Shown: piece after piece, positions 1 to 45,272 of the stretch
Layout of the letters: each line of letters begins with the position of its first letter
How positions within the stretch are numbered: position 1 is the first letter of the stretch
Origin: Escherichia coli
Lineage (GTDB): Bacteria; Pseudomonadota; Gammaproteobacteria; Enterobacterales; Enterobacteriaceae
DNA length: 64,000 nucleotides
Assembly (NCBI RefSeq): GCF_003790525.1
Contig: NZ_CP033635.1
Reading direction: 5' to 3' (one strand)
Program-made: the position numbers and the translations under genes
Notes under the pieces: model-generated
Told to the model about the DNA's origin: nothing
Seen by the model: the letters and a program-made list of their open reading frames with translations, nothing else
The model's database searches: none

Positions 1-1376
1 CATGGATTGATGTGGTAAACCCTGCAACAGAGGCTGTCATTTCCCGCATTCCCGATGGTCAGGCCGAGGATGTCCGTAAGGCAATCGATGCAGCAGAACG
101 TGCACAACCAGAATGGGAAGCGTTGCCTGCTATTGAACGCGCCAGTTGGTTGCGCAAAATCTCCGCCGGGATCCGCAAACGCGCCAGCGAAATCAGTGCG
201 CTGATTGTTGAAGAAGGGGGCAAGATCCAGCAGCTGGCTGAAGTCGAAGTGGCTTTTACTGCGGACTATATCGATTACATGGCGGAGTGGGCACGGCGTT
301 ATGAAGGCGAGATTATTCAAAGCGATCGTCCAGGAGAAAATATTCTTCTGTTTAAACGTGCGCTTGGCGTGACTACCGGCATTCTGCCGTGGAACTTCCC
401 GTTCTTCCTCATTGCCCGCAAAATGGCCCCCGCTCTTTTGACCGGTAATACCATCGTCATTAAACCCAGTGAATTTACGCCAAACAATGCGATTGCATTC
501 GCCAAAATTGTCGATGAAATAGGCCTTCCGCGCGGCGTGTTTAACCTTGTTCTGGGGCGTGGTGAAACCGTTGGGCAAGAACTGGCGGGTAACCCAAAGG
601 TCGCAATGGTCAGTATGACAGGCAGCGTCTCTGCAGGTGAAAAGATTATGGCGACTGCGGCGAAAAACATCACCAAAGTGTGCCTGGAATTGGGGGGTAA
701 AGCACCGGCTATCGTAATGGACGATGCCGATCTTGAACTGGCAGTCAAAGCCATCGTTGATTCACGCGTTATTAATAGTGGGCAAGTGTGTAACTGTGCA
801 GAACGTGTTTATGTACAGAAAGGCATTTATGATCAGTTTGTCAATCGGCTGGGTGAAGCGTTGCAGGCGGTTCAATTTGGTAACCCCGCTGAACGCAACG
901 ACATTGCGATGGGGCCGTTGATTAACGCCGCGGCGCTGGAAAGGGTCGAGCAAAAAGTGGCGCGCGCAGTAGAAGAAGGGGCGAGAGTGGCGTTGGGTGG
1001 CAAAGCGGTAGAGGGGAAAGGATATTATTATCCGCCGACATTGCTGCTGGATGTTCGCCAGGAAATGTCGATTATGCATGAGGAAACCTTTGGCCCGGTT
1101 CTGCCGGTGGTCGCATTTGATACGCTGGAAGAGGCTATCTCAATGGCGAATGATAGTGATTACGGCCTGACCTCATCAATCTATACCCAAAATCTGAACG
1201 TCGCGATGAAAGCCATTAACGGGCTGAAGTTTGGTGAAACTTACATCAACCGTGAAAACTTCGAAGCTATGCAAGGCTTCCACGCCGGATGGCGTAAATC
1301 TGGTATTGGCGGCGCAGATGGTAAACATGGCCTGCATGAATATCTGCAGACCCAGGTGGTTTATTTACAGTCTTAA
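1..1376 (+). CDS. aldA: Aldehyde dehydrogenase A (lactaldehyde/glycolaldehyde dehydrogenase), 3' portion; 5' end lies upstream of the window
   Basis: ORF 12..1376 translation matches AldA C-terminal ~455 aa (catalytic Cys/Glu region, ends VVYLQS); reading frame is open to window start. Confidence 0.95.
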   Translation, partial: WIDVVNPATEAVISRIPDGQAEDVRKAIDAAERAQPEWEALPAIERASWLRKISAGIRKRASEISALIVEEGGKIQQLAEVEVAFTADYIDYMAEWARRYEGEIIQSDRPGENILLFKRALGVTTGILPWNFPFFLIARKMAPALLTGNTIVIKPSEFTPNNAIAFAKIVDEIGLPRGVFNLVLGRGETVGQELAGNPKVAMVSMTGSVSAGEKIMATAAKNITKVCLELGGKAPAIVMDDADLELAVKAIVDSRVINSGQVCNCAERVYVQKGIYDQFVNRLGEALQAVQFGNPAERNDIAMGPLINAAALERVEQKVARAVEEGARVALGGKAVEGKGYYYPPTLLLDVRQEMSIMHEETFGPVLPVVAFDTLEEAISMANDSDYGLTSSIYTQNLNVAMKAINGLKFGETYINRENFEAMQGFHAGWRKSGIGGADGKHGLHEYLQTQVVYLQS

Positions 1377-1386
1377 TGAGTGGAAG

Positions 1387-1409
1387 AGGCGGAGGTTTTT
1401 CCTCCGCCT
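1387..1409. terminator. Hairpin shared by convergent aldA and gapC (aggcggagg-ttttt-cctccgcct)
   Basis: Perfect 9-bp inverted repeat with T5 loop/run located between the two converging stop codons. Confidence 0.6.
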
Positions 1410-1416
1410 GTGTGCG

Positions 1417-2418
1417 TCAGAGTTTAGCGAATTTTTCGAGGGTGCGAATGAGCTGTGTGACGAAGCCATATTCGTTATCGTACCAGGCGACCGTTTTCAC
1501 CAGTTGTAAATCGCCCACGGCGGTAATTTCCGTTTGCGTGGCATCAAACACCGAACCGAAATGGCTGCCAATGATATCGGAAGAGACTATTTCTTCATCG
1601 GTATAACCAAATGACTCGTTATTGGTGGTTGCTTGTTTAAGTGCGTTATTCACCTCTTCGGCAGTCACTTTTTTTCCGAGAATGGACACCAGCTCAGTGA
1701 CCGAACCTGTTTTCACCGGCACGCGTTGCGCATGACCTTTCAGTTTGCCGCTCAGTTCCGGGATCACCAGACCAATGGCTTTTGCCGCACCTGTAGTGTG
1801 GGGAATGATATTTTCTGCCGCTGCACGTGAAGCGCGTAGATCTTTACCTCGCGGACCATCCACCAGTGACTGAGTGCCGGTATAGGCATGAATGGTCGTC
1901 ATCGTGCCGACTTCTATTCCGAAACTGTCGTGCAAGGCTTTGGCCATCGGTGCAAGACAGTTAGTGGTGCATGACGCCACGGAAACAATGGTGTCGTTGC
2001 CATCCAGTGTGTCGTCATTGACGTTATAAACGATGGTTTTCATTTCACCGGCAGGGGCGGAAATCAACACCTTCTTCGCACCAGCATCAAGGTGCGCCTG
2101 CGATTTCTCGGCGGAGGTATAAAAGCCAGTACATTCGACAATGATTTCTGCGCCTTTCGCTTTCCATGGAATATTTTTAGCCTCTTTTTCGGCGTAAACC
2201 GCGATACTTTTTCCATCAACGATAAGTGAATCTTCCGTAAAATCAACGCTCCAGGGGAACGGTCCGTAGTTTGAATCATGTTTCAACAGGTAGGCGAGAA
2301 TTTTTGGGGAAGTGAGATCATTAATAGCAACAATGTCTATGTTGCTTTTGACTTCAAGTAATCGACGCAACACCAGTCGACCGATACGACCAAAACCGTT
2401 AATACCAACTTTACTCAT
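1417..2418 (-). CDS. gapC: Glyceraldehyde-3-phosphate dehydrogenase C, intact 333-aa reading frame
   Basis: ORF translation has GAPDH hallmarks (NGFGRIGR Rossmann motif, SCTTNCLAP active site); uninterrupted here. Confidence 0.9.
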
Positions 2419-2606
2419 GGTCTTCTCCTGTCAGGAACGTTCGGATGAAAATTGATCCTTTCCAGGCTTAGACCAGGATGGCGGGATGGGCAATCTACAT
2501 TCTTGCCGTGAAACGTAACGTACTGAAAACGGGTGAACAATATTTAATGAAATTTTAAGAAAAGCTCGTTATGTTAACGGAAAATTATGTTAAAGCAGGA
2601 AATGTT

Positions 2607-3137
2607 ATGGAAAGTAAATATTCAAGGTTACAAATCGGCATTCACTGGCTGGTCTTTTTGCTGGTTATCGCAGCGTATTGCGCAATGGAGTTTCGTGGTT
2701 TTTTCCCACGTGGCGATAGGCCGCTTATCAACATGATTCATGTTTCCTGTGGCATCTCAATTCTCGTGCTGATGGTTGTTCGTCTTTTGTTAAGGCTTAA
2801 ATACCCAACTCCGCCGATTGTACCTAAACCAAAACCGATGATGACGGGACTGGCGCATTTGGGACATTTGGTGATCTATCTCCTGTTTATTGCGCTGCCA
2901 GTGATTGGTTTGGTGATGATGTATAACCGGGGCAACCCGTGGTCTGCGTTTGGTATGACAATGCCTTATGCAGCAGAGGCCAATTTCGAACGGGTTGATA
3001 GCTTAAAGTGGTGGCATGAGACGCTGGCGAATCTGGGATATTTTGTCATCGGGTTGCACGCTGCGGCTGCACTGGCACACCACTATTTCTGGAAGGACAA
3101 CACACTTCTACGCATGATGCCGCGTAAACGTTCCTGA
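2607..3137 (+). CDS. cybB: Cytochrome b561
   Basis: ORF 2571..3137; internal start MESKYSRLQIGIHW at 2607 matches CybB N-terminus (176 aa, multi-TM haem protein). Confidence 0.92.
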   Translation: MESKYSRLQIGIHWLVFLLVIAAYCAMEFRGFFPRGDRPLINMIHVSCGISILVLMVVRLLLRLKYPTPPIVPKPKPMMTGLAHLGHLVIYLLFIALPVIGLVMMYNRGNPWSAFGMTMPYAAEANFERVDSLKWWHETLANLGYFVIGLHAAAALAHHYFWKDNTLLRMMPRKRS

Positions 3138-3147
3138 AGGATATTTA

Positions 3148-3211
3148 AAGAAAACGCCTGTACTAAAACCGACCCGTGGTACAGGCGAAGAATACGGGTC
3201 TACATCGGAAG
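3148..3211 (-). ncRNA. rydC: RydC small regulatory RNA (Hfq-dependent, pseudoknot)
   Basis: Reverse complement reads CTTCCGATGTAGACCCGTATTCTTCGCCTGTACCACGGGTCGGTTTTAGTACAGGCGTTTTCTT, the 64-nt RydC sequence as I recall it, in the cybB-ydcA intergenic region. Confidence 0.8.
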
Positions 3212-3381
3212 CGCCTATTATATTTATTTGTATGACAAATAAAACCATAATCCTGGTCCATACGTCCATCTGGCTTATCTTTAATCAATTCACCCGATCT
3301 TTGATCTCATCAACGGTATCAAAATAAACCAGCGTATAACGTTCAAATCGAACATAAGATTCGATAAACCATGGAGGTTAT

Positions 3382-3555
3382 ATGAAAAAACTGGCACTTA
3401 TCTTGGTTATAGGAGCGCTTGTTTCCTTTTATGCCGATGCCGGGCGCAAACCCTGTTCTGGTTCGAAAGGGGGGATCTCACACTGTACGGCAGGCGGCAA
3501 ATTTGTCTGTAATGATGGTTCTATTAGTGCATCGAAAAAAACATGCACTAACTGA
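3382..3555 (+). CDS. ydcA: Small secreted protein YdcA (57 aa, signal peptide)
   Basis: ATG at 3382 preceded by GGAGG; translation MKKLALILVIGALVSFYADAGRKPCSGSKGGISHCTAGGKFVCNDGSISASKKTCTN; below the 60-aa ORF-track cutoff. Confidence 0.85.
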   Translation: MKKLALILVIGALVSFYADAGRKPCSGSKGGISHCTAGGKFVCNDGSISASKKTCTN

Positions 3556-3600
3556 AGTGTAAAAGGGGTGCCATGAGAAAATGAATCTGCTAGTCAGATG

Positions 3601-3619
3601 CGCGGGGAAAATCCCCGCG
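3601..3619 (-). terminator. Hairpin downstream of hokB (cgcgggg-aaaa-tccccgcg)
   Basis: GC-rich inverted repeat 8 bp downstream of the hokB stop codon on the minus strand; no clear U-tract. Confidence 0.4.
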
Positions 3620-3626
3620 CTTGCCC

Positions 3627-3822
<196 letters not shown>

Positions 3823-3834
<12 letters not shown>

Positions 3835-3885
3835 TCGTTGGCCTCGGTTGATAGAAATATTGGTCGGGGCCTTCGTCTTTCTGAT
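3823..3885 (+). ncRNA. sokB: SokB antisense RNA (antitoxin of hokB/mokB); boundaries approximate
   Basis: Position antisense to the mokB RBS/start as in hok/sok loci; exact 5'/3' ends not determinable by eye. Confidence 0.35.
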
Positions 3886-4108
3886 TCCCGGTTAGCCTGA
3901 AAACAGAAAGTCTCAGGCACCCGTGAGCATCCTATGTGGTTTCCTTAAGGACGAAAATAATCACCTGACGAAATTGCGTGCTGTTTTCCAGAATTTTTCG
4001 TCATTCGGTTTAGCCAGTTTAATCATTCGTTACTCTCTTCATTCCAATGGCATTATTCTTCTCTGCCATAATTGTTGTAAAAATGTGACGCAAAGAGGTT
4101 TTTGGTCG

Positions 4109-14866: not shown

Positions 14867-15168
14867 TTATCGGTTTCTGTCAGCGATTAAATTCAACACC
14901 ACGTAACAAACGCCTCCGGCAATTAATCCCCAAAACGCAGAACCAATCCCGACCAGCGTCAATCCACTTGCCGTTACCAGAAATGCCACCACCGCCGCGT
15001 CGCGCTCACGCTCATTATGCAGCGCCTGATACAAACTGCCGCCAATGGTACTCAACAGCGCCAGACCTGCCAGCATCTGGATCCAACTTACGGGCAGGGT
15101 AGTCATCATCCCGGTAATGGCACTACCAAACAGACCTGCGAGCAAATAGAAAATGCCTGCAACGGCAG
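14867..15168 (-). pseudogene. ydcO: ydcO (BenE-family benzoate transporter) C-terminal fragment, separated from the rest of the gene by IS4
   Basis: Minus-strand frame ...LIGITAVAGIFYLLAGLFGSAITGMMTTLPVSWIQMLAGLALL...NLIADRNR* is open up to the IS4 left end; hydrophobic transporter C-terminus. Confidence 0.8.
15157..15168. repeat. IS4 target-site duplication, left copy (CTGCAACGGCAG)
   Basis: Identical 12-mer directly abuts both IS4 termini (second copy 16594..16605). Confidence 0.85.
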
Positions 15169-16593
15169 TAATGCCGATCAGTTAAGGATCAGTTGACCGA
15201 TCCAGTGGCTGTGTAAGAATCCGGAAACGCTCACTTGTTTCCGGATTTTTTATGCACATTGGACAGGCTCTTGATCTGGTATCCCGTTACGATTCTCTGC
15301 GTAACCCACTGACTTCTCTGGGGGATTACCTCGACCCCGAACTCATCTCTCGTTGCCTTGCCGAATCAGGTACTGTAACGCTACGCAAGCGCCGTCTTCC
15401 CCTCGAAATGATGGTCTGGTGTATTGTTGGCATGGCGCTTGAGCGTAAAGAACCTCTTCACCAGATTGTGAATCGCCTGGACATCATGCTGCCGGGCAAT
15501 CGCCCCTTCGTTGCCCCCAGTGCCGTTATTCAGGCCCGCCAGCGCCTGGGAAGTGAGGCTGTCCGCCGCGTGTTCACGAAAACAGCGCAGCTCTGGCATA
15601 ACGCCACGCCGCATCCGCACTGGTGCGGCCTGACCCTGCTGGCCATCGATGGTGTGTTCTGGCGCACACCGGATACACCAGAGAACGATGCAGCCTTCCC
15701 CCGCCAGACACATGCCGGGAACCCGGCGCTCTACCCGCAGGTCAAAATGGTCTGCCAGATGGAACTGACCAGCCATCTGCTGACGGCTGCAGCCTTCGGC
15801 ACGATGAAGAACAGCGAAAATGAGCTTGCTGAGCAACTTATAGAACAAACCGGCGATAACACTCTGACGTTAATGGATAAAGGTTATTACTCACTGGGAC
15901 TGTTAAATGCCTGGAGCCTGGCGGGAGAACACCGCCACTGGATGATACCTCTCAGAAAGGGAGCGCAATATGAAGAGATCAGAAAACTGGGTAAAGGCGA
16001 TCATCTGGTGAAGCTGAAAACCAGCCCGCAGGCACGAAAAAAGTGGCCGGGACTGGGAAATGAAGTGACAGCCCGCCTGCTGACCGTGACGCGCAAAGGA
16101 AAAGTCTGCCATCTGCTGACGTCGATGACGGACGCCATGCGCTTCCCCGGAGGAGAAATGGCGGATCTGTACAGTCATCGCTGGGAAATCGAACTGGGAT
16201 ACAGGGAGATAAAACAGACGATGCAACTGAGCAGGCTGACGCTGAGAAGTAAAAAACCGGAGCTTGTGGAGCAAGAGCTGTGGGGTGTCTTACTGGCTTA
16301 TAATCTGGTGAGATATCAGATGATTAAAATGGCAGAACATCTGAAAGGTTACTGGCCGAATCAACTGAGTTTCTCAGAATCATGTGGAATGGTGATGAGA
16401 ATGCTGATGACATTGCAGGGCGCTTCACCGGGACGTATACCGGAGCTGATGCGCGATCTTGCAAGTATGGGACAACTTGTGAAATTACCGACAAGAAGGG
16501 AAAGGGCCTTCCCGAGAGTGGTAAAGGAGAGGCCCTGGAAATACCCCACAGCCCCGAAAAAGAGCCAGTCAGTTGCTTAACTGACTGGCATTA
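15169..16593 (+). mobile_element. IS4 insertion sequence (1425 bp) with 18-bp imperfect terminal inverted repeats
   Basis: Left end TAATGCCGATCAGTTAAG, right end CTTAACTGACTGGCATTA; encodes a 442-aa IS4-family transposase; flanked by 12-bp direct repeats. Confidence 0.9.
15252..16580 (+). CDS. insG: IS4 transposase (DDE; Y-x2-R-x3-E-x6-K signature [16 protein letters not shown])
   Basis: 442-aa ORF beginning [28 protein letters not shown], which I recognise as IS4 InsG. Confidence 0.9.
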
Positions 16594-16605
16594 CTGCAAC
16601 GGCAG
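16594..16605. repeat. IS4 target-site duplication, right copy (CTGCAACGGCAG)
   Basis: Identical to 15157..15168. Confidence 0.85.
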
Positions 16606-17476
16606 CGGCCAGCCAACGTTGATCTTTATCCGGATGCGCTTCCGGGCTTTGGCAAATAGCCGCGGTGATTGCCGCAATACCGACGGAATAAACGCCGAAA
16701 GGGGAAAAAACCAGTGCCAGCAATCCAGTAAATACAATTAATGGCGAAACAGGAGCCGAATATCCGGCTGCTTTCATTGCTGCGATACCCGGTGCGTTTT
16801 GCGATGCCATCGTCACCAGAAAAAGGGGGAGTGCAACGCTCAGGCTGTGAGCAAACGAAAAATCAGGGCTAATATAAGTGGGGAGAACGGGTTTAAAGAC
16901 AACATCAGTTGTGACAATGTCACCTTGCGCGATAACGATCACGACCCCAATAATCATCGCGGCAATTACCGCATAGCGCGGCGCAACGGCCCTGGTTGCC
17001 AGCCATACCAGCAACATACTGCCACACAACGTAAATTGACCATCCAGGCTCGCAAACGCCTGTAAACCAAAGCGTAATAAAATCCCGGCAAGCATTGCCG
17101 CCGCAAGCGAGTGCGGAATAATGCGCATCAGATGAGCAAAGAGTCCCGTTATGCCGCAGAGGACTATTAACGCGTTGGTGACAATAAAAACGCCGATGGT
17201 TTCGTTAAGTGTTAGTCCCTGCAATCCGGTGACCAACAAAGCCGCGCCAGGCGTTGACCATGCGGTGAGAACAGGTACGCGATACCATAATGTCAGAGCC
17301 AGCGTACTGACGCCCATTGCCAGCCCCAGCGCCGTCATCCAGCCAGAGATTTGTGCAGTGGTGGCTCCGGCGACAATCGCTGCTTGCCAGATTATTGCCG
17401 CTGAACTGGCGTAGCCAATTAATACCGCCAGAAACCCCGCCAGTAGCGTGGGTGGAGGAATAGAAAACAGACGCAT
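16594..17476 (-). pseudogene. ydcO: ydcO (BenE-family transporter) N-terminal portion, truncated by IS4
   Basis: Start MRLFSIPPPTLLAGFLAVLIGYASS with GAGG RBS; the frame runs into the IS4 right end and stops inside it; joining with 14867..15168 after removing one 12-bp repeat restores a ~391-codon gene. Confidence 0.8.
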
Positions 17477-17567
17477 AGTCACCTCGTGCGTTATAGCGTA
17501 CAGGCACCGTAGCATTTGTCCGTTATAACGCACAAGTGATAAACTTCCGTTTTGCCGGAGGAGTCGC

Positions 17568-37643: not shown

Positions 37644-38261
37644 ATGATTAAGGTGTATGGCGTACCCGGCTGGGGCTCTACAATCAGTGAGCTGATGCTA
37701 ACACTGGCTGATATTCCTTATCAGTTCGTTGATGTCAGTGGTTTTGACCGCGAGGGAACTTCACGCGAGTTATTGAAAACCCTGAACCCGTTGTGTCAGA
37801 TTCCGACACTGGCGCTGGAAAATGACGAGATTATGACGGAGACAGCGGCGATTGCATTGATGGTTCTCGATCGTCGCCCGGACCTTGCGCCACCGCTTGG
37901 GCGCGTCGAACGTCAGCAGTTTCAACAGTTATTGGTCTGGCTGGTTGCTAATGTCTATCCAACATTCACTTTCGCCGATTACCCTGAGCGTTGGGCTCCT
38001 GACGCACCCGAACAGTTAAAGAATAATGTTATTGAATATCGTAAATCGCTTTATATCTGGCTGAATTCACAATTGACCGCTGAACCGTATGTGTTTGGAG
38101 AGCAACTAACGCTGGTGGACTGTTATCTCTGCACCATGCGCACATGGGGACCGGGACACGAATGGTTTCAGGATAATGCCCCGAACATCAATGCGATTGC
38201 TGATGCTGTATGTCAGATACCAAAGCTAAAAGGGATACTAAAGAGGAATGGAATCATTTAA
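37644..38261 (+). CDS. yncG: Glutathione S-transferase homolog YncG
   Basis: 205-aa ORF with GST N/C-domain pattern. Confidence 0.88.
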   Translation: MIKVYGVPGWGSTISELMLTLADIPYQFVDVSGFDREGTSRELLKTLNPLCQIPTLALENDEIMTETAAIALMVLDRRPDLAPPLGRVERQQFQQLLVWLVANVYPTFTFADYPERWAPDAPEQLKNNVIEYRKSLYIWLNSQLTAEPYVFGEQLTLVDCYLCTMRTWGPGHEWFQDNAPNINAIADAVCQIPKLKGILKRNGII

Positions 38262-38853
38262 TTATTTTTCCCATCGATTTCGCCCACTTTCTTTCGCCCG
38301 GTATAACGCAGCGTCGGCATCTGAAATAATTTGTTCAGCCGTTTTTGCGGGAGCAGAACAGGTAATCCCCTGACTAACCGTAACGAATGCATTAACAGCA
38401 GATGCCTGATGCGGGATAGCTGCCAGTTTAAGTTCTTGCTTCACTCTGGCTGCTACCGTCTCTGCTTCCGGCAATGTTGCATTAAAAAGTATGATGACAA
38501 ACTCTTCGCCACCATAACGGACAACAACATCCTCCGACTGGCGAGTTGAACGCTGTAGAGCGTCGGCAACTTGTATTAGACAACGATCCCCAGCAGGATG
38601 CCCGTAAGTGTCGTTGTAACGTTTAAAAAAATCGACATCCAGCATAATAAGAGCAAATGACCCGCCGTTATCTATCGCGTCGTGTAAGATACTGTTCATT
38701 GCACGTCGGTTTGCTATCCCAGTTAAAGGATCACGATGTGCTAATGCATCAAGGCGATTAATTAACTGGTTGTTATAACTGTTTTGTACCCATGCTTCTT
38801 CAAACCAACGTAACAAAATGAGTCGCCCACCATATAGCGCCAGTGAAAAAATA
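38262..38853 (-). pseudogene. Diguanylate cyclase (GGDEF domain, RYGGEEF active site), C-terminal part separated from its N-terminus by IS1
   Basis: Minus-strand frame ...SLALYGGRLILLRWFEEAW...DPLTGIANRRAM...RYGGEEFVIIL...LYRAKESGRNRWEK*; the apparent TTG start in the ORF track lies inside the IS1 inverted repeat. Confidence 0.8.
38846..38853. repeat. IS1 target-site duplication, left copy (AAAAAATA)
   Basis: Same 8-mer directly flanks the other IS1 end at 39622..39629. Confidence 0.7.
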
Positions 38854-38868
38854 GGTAATGACTCCAAC

Positions 38869-39372
38869 TTATTGATAGTGTTTTATGTTCAGATAATGCC
38901 CGATGACTTTGTCATGCAGCTCCACCGATTTTGAGAACGACAGCGACTTCCGTCCCAGCCGTGCCAGGTGCTGCCTCAGATTCAGGTTATGCCGCTCAAT
39001 TCGCTGCGTATATCGCTTGCTGATTACGTGCAGCTTTCCCTTCAGGCGGGATTCATACAGCGGCCAGCCATCCGTCATCCATATCACCACGTCAAAGGGT
39101 GACAGCAGGCTCATAAGACGCCCCAGCGTCGCCATCGTGCGTTCACCGAATACGTGCGCAACAACCGTCTTCCGGAGCCTGTCATACGCGTAAAACAGCC
39201 AGCGCTGGCGCGATTTAGCCCCGACATAGCCCCACTGTTCGTCCATTTCCGCACAGACGATGACGTCACTGCCCGGCTGTATGCGCGAGGTTACCGACTG
39301 CGGCCTGAGTTTTTTAAGTGACGTAAAATCGTGTTGAGGCCAACGCCCATAATGCGGGCTGTTGCCCGGCAT
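38869..39372 (-). CDS. insB: IS1 InsB (transposase catalytic part, expressed by -1 frameshift as InsAB')
   Basis: 167-aa [28 protein letters not shown]... recognised as IS1 InsB. Confidence 0.9.
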
Positions 39373-39566
39373 CCAACGCCATTCATGGCCATATCAATGA
39401 TTTTCTGGTGCGTACCGGGTTGAGAAGCGGTGTAAGTGAACTGCAGTTGCCATGTTTTACGGCAGTGAGAGCAGAGATAGCGCTGATGTCCGGCGGTGCT
39501 TTTGCCGTTACGCACCACCCCGTCAGTAGCTGAACAGGAGGGACAGCTGATAGAAACAGAAGCCAC
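39291..39566 (-). CDS. insA: IS1 InsA (zinc-finger repressor / transposase N-terminal part)
   Basis: 91-aa [46 protein letters not shown]... Confidence 0.9.
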
Positions 39567-39621
39567 TGGAGCACCTCAAAAACACCATCATATACTAAAT
39601 CAGTAAGTTGGCAGCATCACC

Positions 39622-40135
39622 AAAAAATACACCATACAACAGCAAAATGAATATTGATCTGTTGATTAAGCATAAGACTCGCTATTGGAGTGGTGAACCA
39701 TAAGGGAATGACAAATGCGAGCAATGATGGGGTATGGAAATAAAGTGCGATAACGCCACTAAGCATTAATAATACACATAGTGGATAAGCAAACTGCAGC
39801 GTCCAGTACGCAATAAAGTGATAACTACACCATGACCATAGCAGGCTCAGGGCAACTAATAGCACCTGGATAGGTAATGTTTTTTGCCGAGGGATGAGTA
39901 GTAAACCACTGCAAATCAGCAGAATACCCGTTGCAGATATATCAATAGAATGTATAAGGCTTTTTTCATTTAACCAGGGTGGAGTAAGGTCATTAAACAG
40001 AACACGGCGCAGCAAAATTATCAATGCAAAACTGACATTGATAAAAGCAAACCATGGCAAACTAATCGTCATGCCGCGAATAACCATATCGCGGCGGGTT
40101 TTCCATGAGTGATGCGTTTTTCTTCGTTCAGCCAT
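39622..40135 (-). pseudogene. Diguanylate cyclase N-terminal membrane-sensor portion (about 5 TM helices), truncated by IS1
   Basis: Frame MAERRKTHHSW...QINIHFAVVWCIF runs into the IS1 inverted repeat and stops there; in phase with 38262..38853 once IS1 and one 8-bp repeat are removed (about 366 aa). Confidence 0.75.
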
Positions 40136-40142
40136 TTTTTAA

Positions 40143-40167
40143 CCAAAAAAGGGCAGGATACCTGCCC
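40143..40167 (-). terminator. Rho-independent terminator of the alkylsulfatase gene (gggcagg-ata-cctgccc + T6 on minus strand)
   Basis: Perfect 7-bp stem followed by TTTTTT on the coding strand, 15 bp after the stop. Confidence 0.7.
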
Positions 40168-40181
40168 GGTATGCAGTAAAT

Positions 40182-42158
40182 TTATGGTGTCACTATATTG
40201 AACCAAAATTCAAAATTATCCATATAACCTAACAGCTCGTTGAGTTTTTCCGCATTGCCAGTAATTTTGACATCTTCTTTGGCCGTGGCTTCTTTCAGCG
40301 TCTCTTCTTTCAGTACAATTTTGTTCAATACATCACGAGACAGAGTGATAGTGGCATCAGCATCCGAAGCCTCTACACCAGCGGTATGATTGAGAACACC
40401 ATTTTCAAGCTCCACTTTATAGGTGCCGCCATCTTCACCAAAATCGAAATTCAACACGGTTTTGGCATCTGCCGCTTTCTCACCATTAATATGGACGGCA
40501 AGATAATCAAAGAACATCTCCGGCGTCATCGCACGCACGGTGTCTGGGCTGGCAGTATTTGGTGTTGGTAATTTTTGTACGCCATTACGCAATTCCTGTG
40601 CGCCAGTGAGATAGAAATTACGCCACGGCCCAGATTCAGCCTGATAGCCTAACTGCTCAAGCGCATCAGCTTCCAGATTTCTCGCTGCCTGGTTGTTTGG
40701 ATCGGTAAACACCACCTTACTAACAACTTGGGCAACCCAGCGGAAATTACCCTGGTCATAATCCTGTTTGGCTTTCTGTAAAATGGCATCAGCACCGCCC
40801 ATATACTCGACGAATTTTTTTGCGCCTTCTTCTGGCGGCAGTTCATCAAGCGTCGCGGGGTTACCATCAAACCAGCCGAGATAAAGCACGTAAGTTGCTT
40901 TCACGTCATGACTTACCGAACCGTAATAGCCGCGATTCGCCCAGGTATTAGCCAGTGAAGAGGGCAGTTTAAAGTTTGCGGCAATTTCATCACGGGTCAT
41001 CCCTTGATTTGCCATACGCAGAGTTTGATCATTGATGTAACGATACAAATCACGCTGGCTTTTAAGCAGTTTGACCACGTTATCGTTGCCCCAGGTTGGC
41101 CAGTGATGTTGAGCGAGAATAATCTCGGCTTTATCTCCCCATAAATTGAGAGCTTCGTTAATATATTTTGACCACGGCAGCGGTTGGCGAATTTTAGCCC
41201 CACGCAGCGAATAGGTGTTATGAAGGGTGTGCGTGACATCTTCAGCGGTTTCGATCAGTTTCTTTTCTTCAATAAACCACAGCATTTCAGAAGGCGCTTC
41301 AGAGCCTGGCGCCATCAAGAAATCATAGGTCAACCCGTCAATAGTTTCTTTTTGTCCGGTTTTGGTGATGTAGTTAGTAGGAGCAATCAACGTGACCGTT
41401 CCTGCTGAAGTGGTTGTTCCCAGTCCCGCGCCAACCTGGCCTTTAACATCAGGTTTCAATAAGTTGCCATACATATAACTGGCTCGTCGGCTCATCACAT
41501 TGCCAGCCATAATATTTTCGGAAACGGCTTCCTCCAAAAATCCGGCTGGCGCGTAGATTTTAACTTTGCCTGATTTAACGTCAGCTTCATCAATTACGCC
41601 GCGAACACCACCGTAGTGATCGACATGACTGTGTGTGTAGATAACCGCTACTACCGGTTTTTTGTCGCGATTTTTGTAATAGAGATCCATACCCACTTTG
41701 GCTGTTTCTGCTGAAACAAGGGGATCAACGATGGTAATACCCTCTTTGCCTTCAATGATGGTCATATTTGATAGATCGAGATTGCGAATCTGATAGACAC
41801 CTTCAGTTACTTCGAATAACCCGCTGATATTTATCAGTTGCGCCTGACGCCATAAACTTGGATTCACCGTATCAGGGGCTTTATCACCTTCTTTAATAAA
41901 AGCGTATTGTTGTGGATCCCAGATAACATTTCCTTTTTCGCCCTTAATCACGTCTTGAGGGATAGGGGCAACAAAACCTTTATGGGCATCAGTAAAGTCA
42001 GTGTTATCAGAAAACGGCAACTGGTTGTAGAGTAAATTGTTTGCTTGTTGCGTGGCTGCGGTGGCGTCTTTAGGGGCTTCCGCCGCGAGGAGTGGCAAAG
42101 AACTGGTGGTGAATAATCCCGTTATTAGCAGACTTTTAACAATATGATTAAGCTGCAT
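40182..42158 (-). CDS. Secreted metallo-beta-lactamase-fold alkyl/aryl-sulfatase (SdsA1/YjcS family)
   Basis: 658-aa ORF with signal peptide (LPLLAAEAP), MBL zinc motif YTHSHVDHYGG, size and layout typical of SdsA1-like alkylsulfatases. Confidence 0.8.
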   Translation of the reverse strand: MQLNHIVKSLLITGLFTTSSLPLLAAEAPKDATAATQQANNLLYNQLPFSDNTDFTDAHKGFVAPIPQDVIKGEKGNVIWDPQQYAFIKEGDKAPDTVNPSLWRQAQLINISGLFEVTEGVYQIRNLDLSNMTIIEGKEGITIVDPLVSAETAKVGMDLYYKNRDKKPVVAVIYTHSHVDHYGGVRGVIDEADVKSGKVKIYAPAGFLEEAVSENIMAGNVMSRRASYMYGNLLKPDVKGQVGAGLGTTTSAGTVTLIAPTNYITKTGQKETIDGLTYDFLMAPGSEAPSEMLWFIEEKKLIETAEDVTHTLHNTYSLRGAKIRQPLPWSKYINEALNLWGDKAEIILAQHHWPTWGNDNVVKLLKSQRDLYRYINDQTLRMANQGMTRDEIAANFKLPSSLANTWANRGYYGSVSHDVKATYVLYLGWFDGNPATLDELPPEEGAKKFVEYMGGADAILQKAKQDYDQGNFRWVAQVVSKVVFTDPNNQAARNLEADALEQLGYQAESGPWRNFYLTGAQELRNGVQKLPTPNTASPDTVRAMTPEMFFDYLAVHINGEKAADAKTVLNFDFGEDGGTYKVELENGVLNHTAGVEASDADATITLSRDVLNKIVLKEETLKEATAKEDVKITGNAEKLNELLGYMDNFEFWFNIVTP

Positions 42159-44378: not shown

Positions 44379-45272
44379 TCAGAGTTTAATTGCCCATTCG
44401 GCATGAAACAAAATCACCGCCGTGCCAGAAATGGTGACTTTCTCCGGTTGGTTATCACGAATTGTCACCGTCACTTCAATCACGCCGTCACGCCCTAATG
44501 CGCGCCCCTGATGGCCTTTAACACGCAACACGTTGCCATCGTGTGGCAATACGTTGTGATGTACTAACTATGCACCCATCGGGCCATTGGCATTGCCAGT
44601 CACCGGATCTTCCACAATACCAATCGCAGGCGAGAACATGCGACCATCGGTTTCGTTTTTGCCTGGGCGGATCTGGAACGGGAAGAAACCATTGCAGCCA
44701 ATCTGTTTGCTGATTGTGGTCAGCGCAGCAAGGTCAGGCGAAAGGGCGTCGATATCCACTTCCGGCTTCAGTGGAATCATCACTTTTGAGTGTCCTGTGG
44801 TAGCCACCTGGATTGGCAAGCCTTGCAAAATATCGTCTTCAGTGAGATGAAGCGCGTTGATAATCGCTGCACGTGTTTCACCTTCCAGCGGTGGTTCAAA
44901 GCCCGGCGTACCTTGCTCCAGCGAAATACGATAATCATCATTTTGCTTTTCGATAGTCACACGATGTTTTCCTGCCAGCGACGTTTGCCAGACGGTGCAA
45001 TTTCCTAAACCTAACACCTTTGCACGTACATAGTGCGCAGCTACTGTCGCGTGACCACAAATCGGAACTTCAACCGTTGGCGTAAAGTAGCGGATGCGCA
45101 CATCGCTGTCGTCGCTGTGCAGCAGAAAAGCAGTTTCCGAATGACCTAACTCGCGGGCGATAAGCTGCATTTGCGCTTCGCTAAGATTATCGGCGGGGAA
45201 AACAACACCGGCAGAATTGCCGCGAAACGGTTGAGAGGTAAAAGCATCGACGTGGTAAACCTGCGGTTTCAT
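44379..45272 (-). pseudogene. yddE: PhzF-family isomerase yddE carrying an in-frame amber (TAG) codon at codon 235; full frame would be 297 codons
   Basis: Frame MKPQVYHVDAF...GNANGPMGA-TAG-LVHHNVLPHDGNVLRVKGHQGRALG...HAEWAIKL*; the only interruption is the TAG at 44568..44570, where I recall W in K-12 YddE. Confidence 0.8.

Follow-up and report, generated by a model that had tools for sequence, protein, structure and literature searches.

DgcX of EAEC O104:H4 is an extra membrane GGDEF cyclase, outside the K-12 set, with an intact active site (PMC4287979). Its N-terminal domain spans about 270 aa, has eight predicted helices and is of a type that YcdT and YeaI share; the protein carries an intact RxxD I-site, and its gene always adjoins lambdoid prophage DNA (PMC4287979). 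K-12 itself encodes DgcF (YneF), a small membrane GGDEF protein of 315 aa and thus of similar size to the protein studied here. One further non-K-12 cyclase besides DgcX, named DgcY, is reportedly described in Hengge et al. 2016 and in Povolotsky and Hengge 2016, and the MASE5-GGDEF gene studied here may be the one that bears this name in the nomenclature of the E. coli pangenome. In a full-text literature search, 'MASE5' was found solely in engineering papers without relation to this enzyme, and a literature search for 'DgcY' returned only Pseudomonas fluorescens, Halomonas and a Salmonella network resource, with no E. coli paper. The protein WP_000236738.1 of strain SMS-3-5, which also has the MASE5-GGDEF architecture, is encoded by a nucleotide-identical gene at the same locus; the difference is that the gene studied here is split by IS1. 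For this element, the target duplication per transposition is reported to be 8 or 9 bp, and the insB product is made only as the InsAB' transposase, via a -1 frameshift (PMC12428005).

In the window (the whole stretch of 64,000 nucleotides of E. coli DNA that was analysed), a complete IS1 separates the two parts of this cyclase gene. We hold it about 90% probable that IS1 transposed very recently into an accessory membrane cyclase gene, that the full-length enzyme can no longer be made and that the allele is most likely null. Each component belongs to a known type, hundreds of genomes carry the intact gene in annotated form, and public reads already contain the junction. The case is an ordinary strain-specific insertional inactivation and not a new kind of system.

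The sequence-only reading had proposed DgcX and DgcF for comparison with the reconstructed protein, which proved to be neither, DgcX by its described architecture and locus and DgcF by alignment. The likeness to DgcX is that both are non-K-12 membrane GGDEF cyclases with an intact active site. Identity with DgcX was rejected by the description of that enzyme, as the protein here has a six-helix MASE5 domain of about 200 aa, no RxxD and a locus that is not a prophage. Identity with DgcF was also rejected: only the GGDEF domain aligns, at 27% identity, the membrane parts share no similarity and the locus is another one.

The split gene and its IS1 element

Features of the locus are collected in Table 1. 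The 5' fragment encodes a basic N-terminus, membrane helices 1-5 of the MASE5 domain and the first third of helix 6, and the 3' fragment encodes the remainder of membrane helix 6, the signalling helix and the entire GGDEF domain with its RYGGEEF motif. The current 5' ORF (39617..40135, 172 aa) consists of 171 native residues followed by W-stop, read from the IS1 end. When IS1 and one copy of the repeat were removed in silico, a 1098-nt ORF of 365 aa resulted, in which ...VVWCIF is joined to SLALYGGRL.... This reconstructed ORF showed 100% DNA identity over 1098 nt to the intact annotated gene of SMS-3-5 and of many other strains. The break at residue 171/172 lies within the Pfam MASE5 domain (residues 25-206) and the sixth membrane helix, and not at a domain boundary.

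Table 1 Coordinates of the features at the split cyclase locus, numbered from the first letter of the window
Feature	Position	Strand	Basis or remark
yncG (GST family)	37644..38261	+	convergent neighbour; its stop abuts the cyclase stop
3' cyclase fragment, codons 172-365 and stop	38262..38853	-	100% identical to SMS-3-5
Target-site duplication copy AAAAAATA, IRR side of IS1	38846..38853	.	matches the other copy
Complete IS1 (IS1A-like), 768 bp	38854..39621	-	ends, ORFs and profile matches; co-oriented with the split gene
insB reading frame, 167 aa	38869..39372	-	NCBIfam NF033558 transpos_IS1 match
insA, 91 aa, zinc-finger/HTH repressor	39291..39566	-	NCBIfam NF033558 transpos_IS1 match
Target-site duplication copy AAAAAATA, IRL side of IS1	39622..39629	.	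matches the other copy
5' cyclase fragment, codons 1-171	39622..40135	-	100% identical to SMS-3-5
Terminator-like hairpin and T-run	40151..40167	-	3' of the alkyl/aryl-sulfatase gene; 16 nt separate it from the ATG of the longest ORF
Alkyl/aryl-sulfatase gene	40182..42158	-	intact upstream neighbour; absent from K-12 along with the cyclase gene

What had been read from the letters about this arrangement agreed with these results, with corrections of detail. The two fragments were taken to be parts of one gene joined in phase, and they are: they are neither out of phase nor parts of different genes, and the sequence rebuilt from them matches the uninterrupted gene of SMS-3-5 at every nucleotide. 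The complete 768-bp IS1 with its 8-bp duplication was confirmed by the ends, by insA and insB, by the frameshift site and by AAAAAATA on both sides. An in-frame join on excision was also borne out, but the product is exactly 365 aa long and not about 366 aa. The N-terminal sensor had been given about five membrane helices, which is right for the 5' fragment (five and a third of the sixth), but the whole sensor domain has six. The 3' fragment had been described as a GGDEF domain whose RYGGEEF motif is intact; the motif is as stated, but the last part of the sensor domain lies on this fragment too.

By direct reading of the window, the low-coordinate end of IS1 is the IRR-type GGTAATGACTCCAACTTATTGAT and the high-coordinate end is the reverse complement of the IRL-type GGTGATGCTGCCAACTTACTGAT. 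These terminal inverted repeats (GGTGATGCTGCCAACTTACTGAT / GGTAATGACTCCAACTTATTGAT) are about 23 bp long and imperfect, with 18 of the first 23 positions complementary. The A6C frameshift site TTAAAAAAC lies at IS1 position 305 (window about 39309-39317). The direct repeat around the element is exactly 8 bp, and repeats of 9 to 12 bp fail to match. The AT-rich target AAAAAATA is single-copy in SMS-3-5, and the two alignments between the window and SMS-3-5 share exactly these 8 bases. Compared with IS1 (IS1A-type) insertional inactivation as known from E. coli, the size, the repeats, insA and insB, the A6C site and the AT-rich 8-bp duplication are all shared, and there is no difference in kind.

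The IS1 copy differs from the IS1A of K-12 at 4 positions (99.5% identity). Identical copies of this variant are found mainly on plasmids of 96-175 kb and on a few chromosomes, in poultry, bird and human isolates, a distribution that hints at a possible plasmid source for the copy. No second IS1 copy was found in the 64-kb window, and with only one copy there an involvement of IS1-IS1 recombination was rejected.

The intact protein

Domain searches of the reconstructed protein identified MASE5 (PF17178, residues 25-206, 7.4e-44) and a GGDEF domain covering the full model (PF00990, residues 207-362, 1.7e-48) in Pfam. The generic GGDEF model of NCBIfam (TIGR00254) matched at 1.5e-46 and scored 158 bits, where the cut-off is 37; it was the only NCBIfam match, and no equivalog for a named cyclase, DgcN, DgcQ, DgcJ and AdrA included, reached its cut-off. 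The active-site motif RYGGEEF at residues 281-287 is intact. In an alignment of 31 homologues with 48-92% identity, GGEEF was invariant together with D241, D243, N249, D258, K356 and R360, whose roles we presume from what is known of PleD and WspR. Many cyclases, though not of necessity, carry an RxxD I site five residues ahead of GGDEF. Its canonical form is absent here (RQSED-VVVRY-GGEEF), with the Asp in the canonical place and the Arg one position too far away, and the resulting RxxxD spacing holds throughout the family in the same alignment. The uninterrupted protein would presumably be an active, expressed cyclase.

An AlphaFold model of the intact protein, based on 31 homologues, had a mean pLDDT of 82.9. 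It predicts six membrane helices (14-41, 58-80, 86-111, 116-131, 135-157 and 162-207) with short loops between them, and a hydropathy scan also counted six. The sixth helix (162-207) continues unbroken into the GGDEF domain in the model, and the GGDEF part superposes on that of WspR with 2.3-2.4 A rmsd over about 160 residues. Among solved structures, the diguanylate cyclase ImcA of P. aeruginosa PAO1 (PDB 8wcn) was the best sequence match in the PDB (3e-31) and the sole top fold match that spans nearly the full length (371 columns). At 24% identity and a TM-score of about 0.4, however, the membrane parts of the two proteins are not demonstrably homologous.

The start codon of the gene is ambiguous between M1 and M17. 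RefSeq starts the protein at M17, which gives the 349 aa of WP_000236738.1, and the longest ORF starts at M1 and gives 365 aa; both forms are found in the public protein collection. Position 11 is almost always Trp in distant homologues, and this speaks for the longer, M1 form. The ATG of M1 is not preceded by a Shine-Dalgarno sequence and directly follows the terminator.

Distribution and other lesions of the gene

The distribution of the gene was examined by megablast of the reconstructed 1098-nt gene against 5426 complete E. coli genomes. Results showed that 443 genomes carry the gene (full length in 436, with at least 99% identity in 434) and that it is absent from the other 4983. Seven of the 443 gene-bearing genomes have no single place covering at least 80% of the gene. 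Intact copies are annotated as "GGDEF domain-containing protein" or "diguanylate cyclase". Beyond E. coli, orthologues were found in Escherichia whittamii and other Escherichia species (80-93% identity), in Citrobacter koseri (63%), and in Enterobacter, Salmonella, Hafnia, Leclercia and Pantoea (about 50%). PF17178 and PF00990 occur together in all 120 of the homologues listed. From this distribution, it appears that the gene is old in enterobacteria and was lost from most E. coli lineages. The syntenic interval of K-12, between yncG and pptA, contains yncH, rhsE, ydcD, yncO, yncI and ydcC instead of the cyclase and sulfatase genes. With this difference, and with the resemblance to DgcF limited to the GGDEF domain, the earlier impression that the gene lies outside the K-12 set was upheld.

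Several strains carry other damage in the same gene. In OZ040295.1, an IS5-like element lies at nt 616-619 of the cyclase gene, and the neighbouring sulfatase gene contains an IS1. GCA_047963945.1 has a 1-nt deletion at nt 304. In SCU-124, the last 103 nt of the cyclase gene are replaced by the ISAs1-type element ydcC. The arrangement in K-12 is that of SCU-124 minus a segment of 3,233 bp, which comprises the sulfatase gene and the truncated cyclase gene, and this deletion stops exactly where ydcC ends, as is characteristic of deletions adjacent to an IS. Perhaps the same ISAs1-adjacent deletion as in K-12 removed the gene from the other strains without it. Across E. coli lineages, the locus documents how IS elements have removed a signalling gene step by step.

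These lesions raise the question of convergent loss, in which the IS1 hit would be one of several independent destructions of an enzyme selected against in some niches. A precedent for niche-linked selection against a trait is the loss of cellulose in ST95, as has been reported. If so, the IS1 allele, found in seven samples, would represent an adaptive change in c-di-GMP signalling and not neutral decay. We regard this as unlikely. The 7 genomes among 443 without a one-piece copy are not obviously above the background rate, and selection is therefore not claimed.

Age and consequence of the insertion

The whole window was aligned to positions 1,699,408-1,762,631 of the SMS-3-5 chromosome, a strain listed under phylogroup F (PMC5635171). 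Over 63 kb in total, there were no mismatches in window positions 1-38853 and 2 SNPs in 39622-64000. The two gene fragments that flank IS1 are free of mismatches. The insertion is therefore younger than the tiny divergence between the two chromosomes, and the recency claimed for it from the letters is established by this comparison.

The exact target duplication also bears on whether the junction exists at all. An assembly in which a repeat had been collapsed or misplaced into an intact gene might give a similar picture, in flanks that are otherwise essentially identical to SMS-3-5. In line with such an artefact, a search for the gene-IS1 junction in the 5426 complete E. coli genomes found no place with a query coverage of at least 80%, in output dominated by IS1 matches. 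A misassembly, however, would not perfectly duplicate 8 bp that occur only once in the reference. Moreover, the independent Logan contig SRR25608274_194, assembled from short reads and recorded identically for 7 samples, carries the same gene-to-IRL junction, with IS1 at the same site; it matches the window at 100% as far as the contig end, 30 nt inside the element. The junction is real, as this contig shows, and the allele is present in several sequenced samples; an artefact is extremely improbable. The contig was reached by look-up of the 156-aa fragment ORF. Look-up of the 145-aa fragment ORF led to other alleles with different damage, and the 172-, 151-, 201- and 184-aa fragment ORFs were absent from the protein collection by exact look-up.

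Our reading of the sequence of events is as follows. In the chromosome of a close relative of SMS-3-5, IS1 transposed into the AT-rich AAAAAATA. Judging from the general behaviour of GGDEF enzymes, the intact protein would sense a signal in the membrane and pass it along helix 6 to control the activity of a cytoplasmic GGDEF dimer. IS1 cuts helix 6 at 171/172, and the 5' fragment now ends two codons into the element. A sequence scan found no promoter-like site for the 3' fragment, and no Shine-Dalgarno sequence precedes its TTG or ATG start candidates. With a truncated 5' ORF and a 3' fragment that has neither promoter nor ribosome-binding site, the full-length enzyme cannot be made, and the allele is most likely null. 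The split allele would thus have lost its cyclase activity, and the strain one source of c-di-GMP.

Two other accounts of the consequence were weighed against this loss. The split gene might have acquired an altered function, by read-through and re-initiation at a TTG that a single base separates from the insB stop (TAA-G-TTG). This TTG is the start of an ORF of 201 aa (38262..38867) with half of helix 6, the signalling helix and the GGDEF domain. The product would be a soluble, unregulated cyclase freed from its membrane sensor. IS1 and the gene are co-oriented, so that the cyclase promoter or the IS1 promoter could drive the read-through, and the fragment would keep the whole GGDEF domain and about 35 helix residues that could still pair, in a family that lacks the canonical RxxD product-inhibition site. 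Against this, the TTG has no Shine-Dalgarno sequence, the IS1 promoter is extremely weak and repressed by InsA, and the end of insB is reached only after a frameshift that occurs at a rate of about 2% (PMC12428005). The hydrophobic half-helix at the N-terminus would also probably lead to aggregation or degradation, and we consider the altered function very unlikely, although traces of a soluble GGDEF protein are conceivable.

Equally slight is the chance that IS1 hit a pseudogene already dead or in decay, so that nothing functional was lost. The absence of the gene from most complete genomes and the independent damage in several strains would fit such a history. Yet the two fragments have exactly the sequence of an allele kept intact in 436 genomes, and the catalytic residues are invariant in orthologues across Escherichia, Citrobacter koseri, Enterobacter, Salmonella and Hafnia, which indicates long-term purifying selection. 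We therefore retain the recent inactivation of an intact cyclase gene as the preferred reading.

On this inactivation, the strain and the samples that share the junction contig are probably without one c-di-GMP synthase, which has little import beyond strain annotation; the balance between biofilm formation and motility could shift slightly. As a natural null allele, the split gene forms a convenient pair with its near-isogenic intact counterpart in SMS-3-5 (2 SNPs per 63 kb) for work on a widespread but uncharacterised MASE5-GGDEF enzyme. The locus order in SMS-3-5 (pptA, sulfatase, cyclase gene, yncG, ansP) is identical to that in the window. A polar effect of IS1 was also considered and rejected: the next gene, yncG, is convergent, and the element has no downstream gene on which to be polar.

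Lesions and loss of the cyclase gene in other strains

Damage to the MASE5-GGDEF diguanylate cyclase gene was found in several E. coli genomes besides the window strain. In K-12, the cyclase gene and the neighbouring alkyl/aryl-sulfatase gene are missing because of a 3,233-bp deletion, which lies flush with the end of the ISAs1-type element ydcC (K-12 locus L008, between 11963 and 11964; compared with 763-3995 of SCU-124 locus L013). In SCU-124, ydcC has taken the place of the cyclase gene's final 103 nt, and this arrangement is a preserved intermediate state on the way to K-12. OZ040295.1 carried an IS5-like element in the cyclase gene at gene nt 616-619 as well as an IS1 in the adjoining sulfatase gene, and GCA_047963945.1 showed a 1-nt deletion at cyclase gene nt 304 (near 3645 of its locus L002). 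The cyclase gene lesions of these last two genomes arose independently.

Source of the IS1 copy and start of the cyclase gene

The IS1 that splits the cyclase gene (window 38854-39621) differs from K-12 IS1A by 4 nt. Copies with 100% identity were found mainly on 96-175 kb plasmids and on a few chromosomes; the E. coli isolates that carry them came from poultry, birds and humans. The sequence of the element hints that a plasmid may have been its source.

At the other end of the gene, a terminator-like hairpin of the sulfatase gene stops 16 nt short of the ATG of the longest cyclase ORF (window 40135-40167), and this gap therefore leaves no space for a promoter. Even so, the residues ahead of the RefSeq start, M17, include a nearly invariant tryptophan.

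Differences from SMS-3-5 and other features of the window

Comparison with the near-identical reference strain SMS-3-5 revealed only two SNPs, one in yddE and one in fdnG. In yddE, codon 235 changes from TGG in SMS-3-5 to TAG here (window 44568-44570), thus shortening YddE from 297 to 234 aa in the window strain. The fdnG SNP (window 59214, plus strand) is non-synonymous, D66E. fdnG was read as two ORFs, and the break at window 59605 is the normal selenocysteine TGA.

Coordinates of features in the window and of lesions in OZ040295.1
Feature	Coordinates	Strand	Remark
RydC sRNA	3148-3211	minus	Rfam
sok antitoxin RNA of hokB locus	3771-3922	minus	Rfam
IS4 transposase ORF	15252..16580	plus	
yddE	44379..45272	minus	PhzF-family isomerase YddE
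Leucine-rich-repeat ORF, 418 aa	53798..55054	minus	tandem pair
Leucine-rich-repeat ORF, 421 aa	55117..56382	minus	tandem pair
SECIS element of fdnG	59599-59657	plus	
OZ040295.1 lesions	353-1120 and 2760-3956		on L003

An IS4 element interrupts ydcO, which encodes a BenE-family transporter (window about 14867-17515). This insertion is common to the window strain and SMS-3-5, and it is an older event; both ydcO pieces are labelled as pseudogene parts in SMS-3-5 RefSeq. The two leucine-rich-repeat proteins, whose ORFs are flanked by a porin gene and narU, share 29% identity with each other. The second ORF is open in the window, although SMS-3-5 RefSeq lists it only as a partial pseudogene. The RydC and sok RNAs are ordinary E. 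coli features.
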